Notes under the pieces: model-generated
What the model was told of the DNA's origin: nothing
The model's database searches: none
The model's input: the letters and a program-made list of their open reading frames with translations, nothing else
Shown: positions 37,433-39,874 of the stretch, piece after piece
Layout of the letters: the number at the start of each line of letters is the position of its first letter
Position numbering within the stretch: the first letter of the stretch is position 1
From: a virus
Taxonomy: Duplodnaviria > Heunggongvirae > Uroviricota > Caudoviricetes
Virus record (IMG/VR): IMGVR_UViG_2718217862_000001
DNA: 41,292 nucleotides
Reading direction: 5' to 3' (one strand)
Program-made: the position numbers and the translations under genes

Positions 37433-39874
37433 ATGAGCACTGATAAAGAAGAATTTGCACTATATTGCGAAGCAAAAAATGACAAAGTAAGAAAACGCCT
37501 AGGAATTAAAGGTGGTTTTTACTGGACTACAGCAAAAAAATTATCTGTTGCAATCTCCCGCTGCATTACCGCAATGGATGACAACGATTATGATGAAGAC
37601 GACTTTAAAAAACCCGTCCGCGTCAATTTGCCCGTTGTTGACGACCTTCCGCCAGAAGGCGTGTTTGATACTGAATTCTGCAACCGCTATGAAAAAGGCG
37701 GGAAAGATGGCATCACAATGACATTTATCGGCCCTTCCCCCTCTGTTCAGGACAAACCAGCCAGCACTGACAATACCAACATCAACGGCGAAGCCATGAC
37801 TGAGATTGAGGAGAGCATGCTTCTGCCTGTCTCCGGTCAGGAACTGCCCATTCGTTGGCTTGCTCAACACGGCAGCGAAAAACCAGTAACGCACGTTTCA
37901 CGCGACGAACTCCAGGCATTACACATTGCACGGGCTGAAGAACTACCGGCTGTTACTGCCCTGGCTATTTCGCATAAAACCAGTCTGCTCGACTCGCTGG
38001 AGATTCGCGACCTCCACAAACTGGTTCGTGACACTGACAAAGTTTTCCCTAATCCTGGTAATTCAGACCTGGGACTAATAACTGCTTTTTTCGAAGCATA
38101 CCTAGACGCTGACTACACTGATCGGGGTCTGCTGACAAAAGAGTGGATGAAAGGAAATCGTGTTTCACGCATCACCCGCACGGCTTCCGGTGCTAATGCT
38201 GGCGGTGGGAACAAAACCGATCGCAATCCGAATTTAGTACACACCCTCGACACACTGGATGTGGAGATTGCAGCAGCCACACTTCCGATGGATTTTAATA
38301 TTTATGAAATTCCGGGCAGCGTTTATCGTCGCGCAAAAGAAGTAGTCCTGAACAAAGAAAGTCCGTTCAAAGAATGGTCCGCAGCACTTCGTGCAACCCC
38401 GGGTATTCTGGACTATTCCCGCGCCGCTATTTTTGCACTTATCCGAAGCGCACACCCTGAATTTTATCACTACCCGGGACGCCTTCAGGGGTATATCAAC
38501 GCCTATTTGACGGAAACTGATCACGAGAACCCCAGCAAGGAAACTCTCACAGCTGCCCGGCATACGCCGGAAAAAGATATCCTGGAAGAAATTAACCGCG
38601 AGGTGGTTACTGAGCGTGAAACAGAAGAAGAAAAACCACAACCATCTGACGCAATGGCAGGTGAACAGGCAACAACTGAAACAATGGAACCGGATACAAC
38701 TGAACATGGCCAGAACGCGCAGTCGCTGGATGCTCAGTCGCAGGTGAGTTCCGCTAACCAAGTAAAAGTCACCGCTGACGAAGTAAACAAAATTATGCAG
38801 GCAGCCAATATCAGCCAGCCTGACGCCGATAAGTTACTTGCTGTATCGCGTGGTGAATTTGTTGAGGGGATTAGCGACCCTAATGATCCGAAATGGGTCA
38901 AAGGGATCCAGACTCGCGATTCTGTGAACCAGAACCAGCATGAATCGGAACGGAACGACCAAAAAGCGGAACAAAACAGCCCAAATGCGTTACAAAACGA
39001 GCCAGAAACGAAACAATCCGAACCAGTGGCGCAACAGGAAGTGGAAAAAGTCTGCACCGCCTGCGGTCAGACCGGCGGCGGCAACTGCCCTGATTGTGGC
39101 GCGGTGATGGGCGACGCAACATACCAGGAAACATTCGATGAAGAGTATCAGGTTGAAGTTCAGGAAGATGATCCGGAGGAAATGGAAGGCGCTGAACATC
39201 CACACAAGGAGAACACTGGCGGCAATCAGCATCACGATAGCGATAATGAAACTGGCGAGACGGCAGATCACTCAATTAAGGTGAACGGTCATCAAGAAAT
39301 CACATCCACCAGCAGGACGTGTGACCATCTAATGATCGACCTTGAAACCATGGGAAAAAATCCTGATGCCCCGATCATCTCAATAGGTGCAATATTTTTC
39401 GATCCGCAAACCGGAGATATGGGACCGGAATTTAGTAAGACTATCGATCTGGAAACTGCTGGCGGAGTCATTGATCGGGACACCATTAAATGGTGGCTTA
39501 AGCAATCACGCGAAGCGCAATCTGCCATTATGACCGATGAAATCCCGTTAGATGATGCACTGTTACAATTGCGGGAATTTATCGACGAAAACTCCGGTGA
39601 ATTTTTTGTTCAGGTCTGGGGAAATGGAGCCAACTTCGACAACACGATTTTGCGCCGTTCATACGAACGGCAGGGGATCCCCTGCCCGTGGCGTTACTAC
39701 AACGATCGCGATGTACGCACAATCGTTGAGCTGGGGAAAGCCATAGACTTCGATGCCAGAACGGCTATTCCATTCGAAGGTGAGCGCCATAATGCACTTG
39801 ATGACGCCCGTTACCAGGCAAAATACGTTTCAGTTATCTGGCAAAAACTGATCCCGAGTCAGGCTGATTTTTAA
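37433..39874 (+). CDS. RecE-like protein with C-terminal DnaQ-type (DEDDh) 3'-5' exonuclease domain
   Basis: 813 aa; N-terminal and central parts resemble recalled Rac RecE; C-terminus has [16 protein letters not shown] and HNALDDARY exonuclease motifs. Confidence 0.7.

Follow-up and report, generated by a model that had tools for sequence, protein, structure and literature searches.

Introduction

RecE, the 5'-3' recombination nuclease of the Rac prophage of Escherichia coli K-12, has its nuclease domain at residues 564-866, while its N-terminal region has no known function and the full-length protein is superior only in linear-linear recombination (reviewed in PMC11611040). A survey of lambdoid phages published in 2025 described those without a Rec module as Chi-rich and RecBCD-dependent, and reported DnaQ-like nucleases in lambdoid Rec modules as well as sporadic DnaQ-type genes beside int (PMC12315714). 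Phage T4 encodes DexA, a 3'-5' exodeoxyribonuclease (PMC12153337; likewise in the T4 genome record). The gene described here brings features of these systems together. It lies in a 41,292-nucleotide stretch of DNA from a virus of the class Caudoviricetes (IMG/VR record IMGVR_UViG_2718217862_000001), the whole of which is called the window below, and it had been singled out from the sequence alone, without database searches, as a RecE-like gene with a DnaQ-type exonuclease domain and no annealing partner nearby (the original prediction). Comparison with known families indicates that the nuclease head of a RecE-scaffold protein has been exchanged for a predicted 3'-5' exonuclease of DexA/DnaQ type. 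The tentative reading, with a probability of about 0.45, is that a Qin/Rac-like lambdoid prophage lacking its own recombinase encodes, in its early-left operon, a 3'-5' DNA exonuclease that would process DNA 3' ends during lytic development of a RecBCD/Chi-dependent phage.

Architecture of the chimeric exonuclease

The protein consists of a RecE-type N-terminal module (N-module), an acidic flexible linker, and a DexA/DnaQ-like DEDDh domain at the place where RecE has its PD-(D/E)XK nuclease, and this architecture is solid (Table 1). In BLASTP, residues 58-615 aligned with residues 50-591 of K-12 Rac RecE at 59% identity and no alignment extended beyond, so the RecE homology stops just ahead of the RecE nuclease domain. 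Pfam scans placed PF06630 (Exonuc_VIII) at residues 57-189 (E 1.5e-35) and PF16473 (Rv2179c-like) at residues 632-803 (E 1.2e-67; 227.4 bits against a gathering threshold of 27; profile positions 2-177 of 177), whereas PF12684 (PDDEXK-like), which occupies residues 615-850 of Rac RecE, had no match in the protein. The NCBIfam RecE equivalog model NF007259 covered residues 1-615 with its positions 1-602 of 877, and its score of 944.4 bits stayed under the cut-off of 1269, as the protein contains nothing that corresponds to the last third of the model. The original prediction had assigned RecE likeness to the first ~600 residues; this holds for residues 58-615, in whose RecE-aligned blocks the peptides it quoted are located (BLASTP), but not for the first ~57 residues, which are unlike Rac RecE. 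Its proposal that DEDDh motifs stand in place of the PD-(D/E)XK nuclease agrees with the PF16473 match, the presence of all five catalytic residues, and the lack of a PF12684 match.

In a structure model, the N-module folds with confidence into an alpha/beta block (residues 1-100) and two helical blocks (residues 120-250 and 260-390), with a mean predicted local distance difference test score (pLDDT) of 86; searches for structural relatives, including Foldseek, found none. In the AlphaFold2 model of the full-length protein, the pLDDT falls below 50 across most of the linker (residues 392-627), except for a patch at about residues 448-490, and the composition of this segment is strongly negative in net charge and scarce in hydrophobic residues. 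The CxxC-X7-CxxC motif within it is identical in Rac RecE (residues 517-531 in the alignment) and may bind metal. The protein thus shares with Rac RecE the N-module, the acidic linker, PF06630, the cysteine motif, and a location ahead of xis-int as the final large early-left gene, but differs from it in the DEDDh domain that replaces PF12684, in its sub-threshold NF007259 score, and in having no recT downstream.

A Chi site, GCTGGTGG, was found at 39306-39313 on the - strand inside the gene, about 30 nt from the junction between RecE-homologous and DEDDh-associated sequence (39277|39278). This may be a coincidence, or the junction may owe its origin or spread in part to Chi-stimulated recombination; the peptide encoded at the site is not conserved in the fusions of other genera. 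Separate production of a free DEDDh domain from an internal start at M634 was unsupported, the nearest AGGA lying 14 nt upstream, which is a poor spacing.

Table 1. Positions of the chimeric exonuclease gene, its parts, its neighbours, and other features in the 41,292-nucleotide window
Feature	Position	Strand	Evidence or remark
Whole gene, chimeric exonuclease, 813 aa	37433..39874	+	Open reading frame listing; RefSeq WP_000102136.1 'exonuclease'; historically 'exoO'
RecE-type N-terminal module, ~aa 1-390, three folded blocks	37433..38602	+	Structure model
Acidic linker, predicted disordered, aa 392-627	38606..39313	+	Common to Rac RecE up to aa 615
CxxC-X7-CxxC zinc-knuckle-like motif (C541, C544, C552, C555)	39053..39097	+	Inside linker
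Mosaic junction: last RecE-homologous residue (aa 615) / first residue of DEDDh-associated segment	39277..39278	+	BLASTP end, NF007259 end
DEDDh (DnaQ/DexA-like) 3'-5' exonuclease domain, aa 632-803	39326..39841	+	PF16473, alignments, PDB profile, Foldseek
Catalytic codon D636	39338-39340	+	
Catalytic codon E638	39344-39346	+	
Catalytic codon D736	39638-39640	+	
Catalytic codon H786	39788-39790	+	
Catalytic codon D791	39803-39805	+	
Candidate early-left (pL-type) promoter	35536..35564	+	Consensus scan; downstream of cI-like repressor gene
ydfC	36176-36394	+	RefSeq of identical prophage; same operon, upstream
DicF small RNA	36737-36788	+	Rfam 76.7 bits; between ydfC and dicB, as in K-12 Qin
dicB	36963-37151	+	RefSeq; Pfam DicB
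ydfD/DUF1482	37148-37339	+	RefSeq; Pfam DUF1482
Excisionase (to 40205) and integrase (40174-41292)	39936..41292	+	Open reading frame listing, RefSeq; directly downstream
Chi sites	10704, 20558, 22870, 24419, 29390, 29442, 29975, 30032, 31333, 34228, 39306, 41122		8/12 on - strand, the late-gene sense strand
DUF968 protein, 352 aa, putative HNH nuclease motif (PF16784)	29022-30080	-	Directly upstream of RusA, early-right operon
hok/sok type I toxin-antitoxin locus	30528-30853	-	HokD-like open reading frame 30528-30740; sok antisense RNA 30678-30853, Rfam 112 bits
Small RNA STnc100, two tandem copies	26596-26784, 27060-27253	-	Downstream of Q antiterminator gene
tRNA, CAT anticodon	27604-27679	-	Downstream of Q; ARAGORN Met, RefSeq Ile
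IS3-family element, window begins inside	1-888	+	ALIL frameshift pseudoknot 1-72 (5' end cut); open reading frame to 888

The DEDDh nuclease domain and its predicted substrate

The five catalytic residues occur in the motifs MIDLETMG (D636/E638), GANFD (D736), and HNALDDA (H786/D791), and they align with the same residues in T4 DexA and in the standalone exonuclease of phage mEp235. When a profile of the domain was compared with all PDB chains, T4 DexA (8KEL/8KEN) was the sole significant relative (E 2e-16). Residues 631-806 are well folded in the AlphaFold2 model (pLDDT ~75-90) and adopt the RNase H-like alpha/beta fold of the DnaQ superfamily, for which Foldseek returned DexA at the top, followed by RNase T, Orn/REXO2, ERI, and Cap18, all of them DEDDh 3'-5' exonucleases (DexA, RNase T, Orn, REXO2, and Cap18 at probability 1.00). 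Because the domain belongs to the DEDDh family with an intact catalytic pentad and has DexA as its nearest solved relative, a 3'-5' polarity, opposite to that of RecE, can be soundly predicted, and the same family membership and DexA relationship support the reversed polarity that had been proposed from the sequence. The likeness to DexA and to its E. coli homologue EcD lies in the DEDDh fold and catalytic residues; the domain is only ~26% identical to DexA, which has extra loops, and DexA and EcD, at about 200-227 residues, stand alone, whereas the fusion domain is tethered to ~630 residues of RecE-type sequence. Closer in sequence are standalone DnaQ-like exonucleases of lambdoid phages (mEp235, and the epsilon34 DnaQ in PMC12315714), which are 58-60% identical to the C-terminal domain and likewise encoded in the early-left operon near xis-int. 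These are single-domain proteins of ~180 residues, and the mEp235 gene is flanked by genes for Erf, SSB, and the anti-RecBCD protein Abc2; in the fusion, by comparison, the N-module is attached, and the genes for an annealing protein, SSB, and an anti-RecBCD protein are absent.

DNA is favoured as the substrate by the exodeoxyribonuclease DexA being the only significant solved relative, by the DnaQ-like nucleases reported in lambdoid Rec modules (PMC12315714), and by the contexts of two homologues. The 58%-identical standalone protein of mEp235 is part of an Erf-SSB-exonuclease-Abc2 recombination module that adjoins xis-int, and the homologue in Klebsiella phage SBP is encoded between the genes for DNA polymerase and SSB. 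Two further temperate phages have the homologue beside a methyltransferase gene, near the att site. A different suggestion comes from the family name, since PF16473, of which the domain is a strong member, was named after a mycobacterial 3'-5' exoribonuclease, a term that is also used for the protein in some NCBI records. RNase AS (Rv2179c) of Mycobacterium tuberculosis has adenylate specificity. It shares PF16473 and the DEDDh 3'-5' mechanism with the fusion protein, but it is an exoribonuclease according to the Pfam description, belongs to an unrelated host, and has no RecE module. Together with the Foldseek neighbours that follow DexA (RNase T, Orn/REXO2, ERI, and Cap18, the last associated with the cyclic oligonucleotide-based antiphage signalling system), this could point to an enzyme that degrades RNA 3' ends, nanoRNAs, or linear nucleotide signals in phage counter-defence or RNA turnover. 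Such a role appears unlikely: the profile matched only the DNase DexA among PDB chains, with no chain described as Rv2179c or RNase AS at E <= 1 (the presence of such a structure in the searched copy being unconfirmed), the standalone homologues have genes of DNA replication and recombination as neighbours (Erf, SSB, Abc2, and DNA polymerase), and the other half of the protein derives from a DNA recombination nuclease.

The relationship to DexA also raises the possibility of a prophage defence nuclease of the 'HREX' type, which would digest incoming phage DNA containing 5-hydroxymethylcytosine (5hmC), spare host DNA, and thereby protect the lysogen against T-even phages. EcD, the standalone E. 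coli homologue of DexA, is reported to degrade 5hmC-containing T4 DNA and to protect cells against T4 (PMC12153337), and DexA is the closest solved relative of the domain. The presence of the domain in 75% of complete E. coli genomes, frequently more than once per genome, would also be compatible with an advantage for the host. EcD, however, is a separate standalone gene, as the cloning primers give a start of MIDTET and an end of TIPETYD; no family of the PADLOC-DB 2.0 defence models matched at E <= 0.01; and the proposed 5hmC-recognition residues of DexA are not clearly kept, W152 being opposite Tyr/Phe and D169 not reliably alignable. Moreover, Rac recE is silent in the lysogen, and by analogy the fusion gene would be repressed there. 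A defence role would also leave the RecE N-module unexplained, and it is therefore possible but less likely than DNA 3'-end processing during lytic development.

The missing annealing partner

The original prediction had noted no RecT/Bet/Erf-like gene between the repressor and int, and the wider searches were consistent with it: tblastn with two types of RecT, lambda Bet, and mEp235 Erf gave no match in the whole 41-kb window, and Pfam scans of ten early-region open reading frames (ORFs) revealed no annealing-protein family, their matches including DicB, DUF1482, DUF977, YdaT, and DUF968/HNH among others. Neither Gam nor Abc2 was found in the window. In a 100%-identical prophage, the RefSeq gene order is dicC, cI-like, ydfC, dicB, ydfD, exonuclease, excisionase, integrase, and potC. 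The integrase gene starts 300 nt past the exonuclease stop codon, and there is no space for an annealing-protein gene between the two. Early-left expression of the exonuclease gene is suggested by a position like that of Rac recE and by the lack of a promoter-like site immediately ahead of the gene. Between cI and the exonuclease gene, the + strand has a single promoter-like match, the candidate promoter in Table 1, although the number of matches in the region was not above chance; a promoter of the gene's own was sought as a sigma-70-like + strand match directly upstream and not found, in a scan that was at chance level overall. K-12 ydfE, which has the same position after ydfD in Qin, was considered as a remnant of the fusion gene and rejected, as BLASTP similarity was nil.

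A more extensive comparison was conducted with 51 loci that encode the N-module, taken from species-representative genomes of Enterobacteriaceae and classified by ORF tracing and tblastn, with flanks covered up to 8 kb. More than half of the genes (27/51) end in a PD-(D/E)XK domain, and recT abuts the stop codon (-37 to +39 nt) in all 25 of those with downstream sequence. By contrast, RecT, Bet, and Erf were absent from the flanks of all 18 DEDDh-type loci, 15 of which have an integrase homologue beginning 279-790 nt past the stop codon. The association between nuclease type and annealase is therefore absolute across these loci, which are not phylogenetically independent (Fisher p 1.6e-12), and the contrast (recT in 25/25 versus 0/18) strengthens the proposal that the fusion has a different role from canonical RecE. 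Both arrangements can be seen in individual elements: Salmonella phage FSL SP-016 is annotated as RecE-RecT-xis-int, and a prophage at ompW in enterohaemorrhagic E. coli (EHEC) has the order dicA, ydfC, dicB, fusion gene, xis, and int. All 18 DEDDh-type genes are intact fusion ORFs of 700-833 residues, and at least 11 genera are represented among them (Escherichia, Enterobacter, Citrobacter, Klebsiella, Kluyvera, Atlantibacter, Kosakonia, Phytobacter, Scandinavium, Dryocola, and Buttiauxella). In enterobacterial lambdoid prophages, the fusion constitutes an old and conserved alternative to the RecE-RecT pair, and a very common one.

Two loci, from E. coli ECMA0423 and Shigella flexneri SFBU1023 (L011 and L012), had suggested a third fusion type, RecE-N joined to Gam, which was rejected as the RecE-N ORF is a 474-residue truncation and the gam-like ORF is separate. 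In L011, the truncated gene (L011:8001-9425) is followed ~1.2 kb downstream by an ORF at 10668-10988 resembling lambda Gam (81% identical, residues 42-137), and the same was observed in L012; the early-left region of both is degraded or mosaic. Another locus, L010 (JAGZPX010000007.1), is labelled as a metagenome-assembled genome of Veillonella parvula; its gene is 97-99% identical to the E. coli version, and the contig is almost certainly a mis-binned one from Enterobacteriaceae.

It might be argued that the partner is only apparently missing, and that the protein is a recombination nuclease served in trans by RecT of a co-resident Rac prophage or by Bet or Erf of another lambdoid prophage. 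E. coli genomes commonly contain several lambdoid prophages, sequences related to RecE-N occur in a median of two and up to nine places per genome, and a close DEDDh homologue adjoins Erf and SSB in mEp235. Such a dependence is nevertheless improbable, as a partner-dependent gene would be expected to travel with its partner, which is absent in 18/18 loci across many genera. In RecE, moreover, the contact with RecT maps to the C-terminal nuclease part, which the fusion protein does not have. A 3'-5' exonuclease would also yield 5' tails, whereas RecT/Bet/Erf-type proteins in the RecET and Red pathways use 3' tails (PMC11611040).

Conservation, prevalence, and annotation

The catalytic pentad was intact in 28 of 31 fusion proteins whose domains are 55-100% identical. 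Substitutions were observed in a Citrobacter youngae gene (L036:7941-10421), which has Gly at the first Asp, and in P0134, which has Lys and Ala at the Glu and the second Asp; these could be inactive variants or sequencing errors. Compared with a divergent E. coli allele from strain FDN-4, the ratio of nonsynonymous to synonymous substitution rates (dN/dS) is 0.13 for the DEDDh domain at a dS of 0.25 and ~0.5 for the linker, and the nuclease domain is under purifying selection. The N-terminal 400 residues of the two alleles are merely 24% identical, which implies that the gene is mosaic. Of 5426 complete E. coli genomes, 4053 (~75%) contain the DEDDh segment, with up to seven copies per genome, and 1245 contain the whole gene at a coverage of at least 80%. 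These data bear on whether the protein is a decaying chimera with no selected function, left over from an illegitimate recombination event that involved a Rac-like phage and one of P22/mEp235 type. The break exactly at the domain boundary, the mosaic nature of phage genomes, and the existence of copies that are frameshifted (Stx2 phage EH1910) or carry the substitutions mentioned above would fit such an origin; but the long intact ORFs in 18 species-level loci, the low dN/dS of the nuclease domain, the retained pentad, and the wide distribution of the domain largely refute it, leaving this explanation very improbable.

Many E. coli chromosomes, as well as phage vB_EcoS-640R1, carry copies 100% identical to the gene, and the name 'exoO' is that of a UTI89 gene in the same neighbourhood. 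A homologue search with the N-terminal 400 residues was filled by near-identical partial E. coli fragments, whose names were inconsistent. Products are annotated variously as 'exonuclease', '3'-5' exonuclease', '3'-5' exoribonuclease', 'RecE family exodeoxyribonuclease', and 'exodeoxyribonuclease VIII', the last being the label of the identical gene of vB_EcoS-640R1 (ON470612.1, 14447-16888; L002:9001-11442). This label is wrong for the fusion because it implies a 5'-3' PD-(D/E)XK enzyme, and annotation as 'RecE family' misleads in the same way by implying 5'-3' polarity. ON470612.1 also carries the host genes potC, potD, cobB, and lolCDE, and the record therefore comprises a prophage region with attached chromosome. 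No functional study of the gene was found in the literature searched. The domain combination and the strict rule linking nuclease type to annealase were not described in the searchable literature, a search by Pfam identifiers gave nothing relevant, and the main text of PMC12315714 does not mention a RecE-DnaQ fusion. The protein is thus already in databases and its constituent families are known, but the combination and the genomic rule are apparently new to the literature searched.

Chi sites and the proposed role

The window contains 12 Chi sites against 1.6 expected, an approximately 7-fold excess that none of 100 shuffled sequences reached. Four of them cluster at 29390-30039, within the DUF968/HNH gene. 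In early regions, Chi density was about 2.5 times higher in DEDDh-type prophages than in those of the RecE/RecT type (5.4 versus 2.1 Chi per 10 kb; Mann-Whitney p 0.001), and one orientation, that of the late-gene sense strand, held 77 of the 95 Chi sites in DEDDh-type early regions. By our own reasoning from strand orientation, rather than by computation, Chi sites in this dominant orientation would act on RecBCD that comes in from the packaging end. Because it combines abundant Chi sites with the lack of any annealase or anti-RecBCD gene, the prophage falls in the Chi-rich class without a Rec module, and by analogy with that class it probably relies on host RecBCD.

In the favoured reading, the protein would be produced from the early-left promoter after induction or infection, and not in the quiescent lysogen, as a metal-dependent 3'-5' exonuclease that acts on DNA 3' ends. 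The RecE/RecT route, in which DNA is resected 5'-3' and annealed, would not be used; instead, the enzyme would serve a recombinase-less phage whose recombination goes through host RecBCD-RecA at Chi. It might, for example, remove 3' tails or flaps from DNA ends, and the RecE N-module would provide the same targeting or assembly function as in RecE. If an active 3'-5' DNase is indeed made on prophage induction, phage DNA metabolism would have a widespread participant that has been overlooked, with possible effects on recombineering, on the induction of prophages, and on conflict between phage and host, both in E. coli and in pathogens such as EHEC.

Several considerations weigh against this proposal. 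The usual effect of 3'-5' exonucleases on homologous recombination is inhibitory, since they destroy the invasive 3' tail (PMC12315714), so it is not evident that such an enzyme would assist recombination through RecBCD. The association with Chi is a correlation between phage types, drawn from loci that are not phylogenetically independent, and may mirror only the absence of a Rec module. The activity, polarity, and substrate of the protein are all predicted; early-left expression is deduced from gene position alone, with a promoter scan no better than chance; and 'targeting' by the N-module is a guess, since no structural relative of the module was found. In addition, RNA or short oligonucleotides are conceivable substrates, given that the fold neighbours include RNase T, oligoribonuclease, and Cap18.

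The N-module as a shared scaffold

The N-module family is narrow, comprising 213 clusters at 50% identity among 1.84 billion proteins. One PD-(D/E)XK-type member (P0121) is 88% identical to the fusion protein over residues 1-263, which implies that the N-module has been exchanged between both gene types. Among 80 long representatives, 42 carry neither nuclease domain, and none of ten tails scanned from such proteins contained a Pfam domain. N-module proteins with tails of 200-450 residues and neither nuclease type were observed as P0127, P0175, P0182, P0185, P0189, P0217, P0245, P0257, P0169, P0224, and L060:7254-9158. These tail-bearing proteins probably represent the 'RecE-2' class of PMC12315714, distant relatives of the RecE N-terminal region without PD-(D/E)XK, of which L060 is an example found here; 'RecE-2' proteins were described without any nuclease domain, whereas the fusion has an intact DEDDh nuclease.

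More speculatively, and with considerable doubt, the RecE N-module might be a portable platform that takes exchangeable nuclease heads, a PD-(D/E)XK 5'-3' nuclease with RecT or a DEDDh nuclease of the reverse 3'-5' polarity without annealase, to one common DNA-end or host target, in which case the DEDDh version would be a second, annealase-independent end-processing strategy of Chi-rich, RecBCD-dependent lambdoid prophages. The either/or pattern on an exchangeable N-module is a natural domain swap, and it offers a handle on the role of the dispensable N-terminal two thirds of RecE.

Other features of the window

The remaining features are listed at the end of Table 1. Among them, the DUF968/HNH gene, which has four Chi sites inside, is another nuclease-like gene of the window and is itself uncharacterised.

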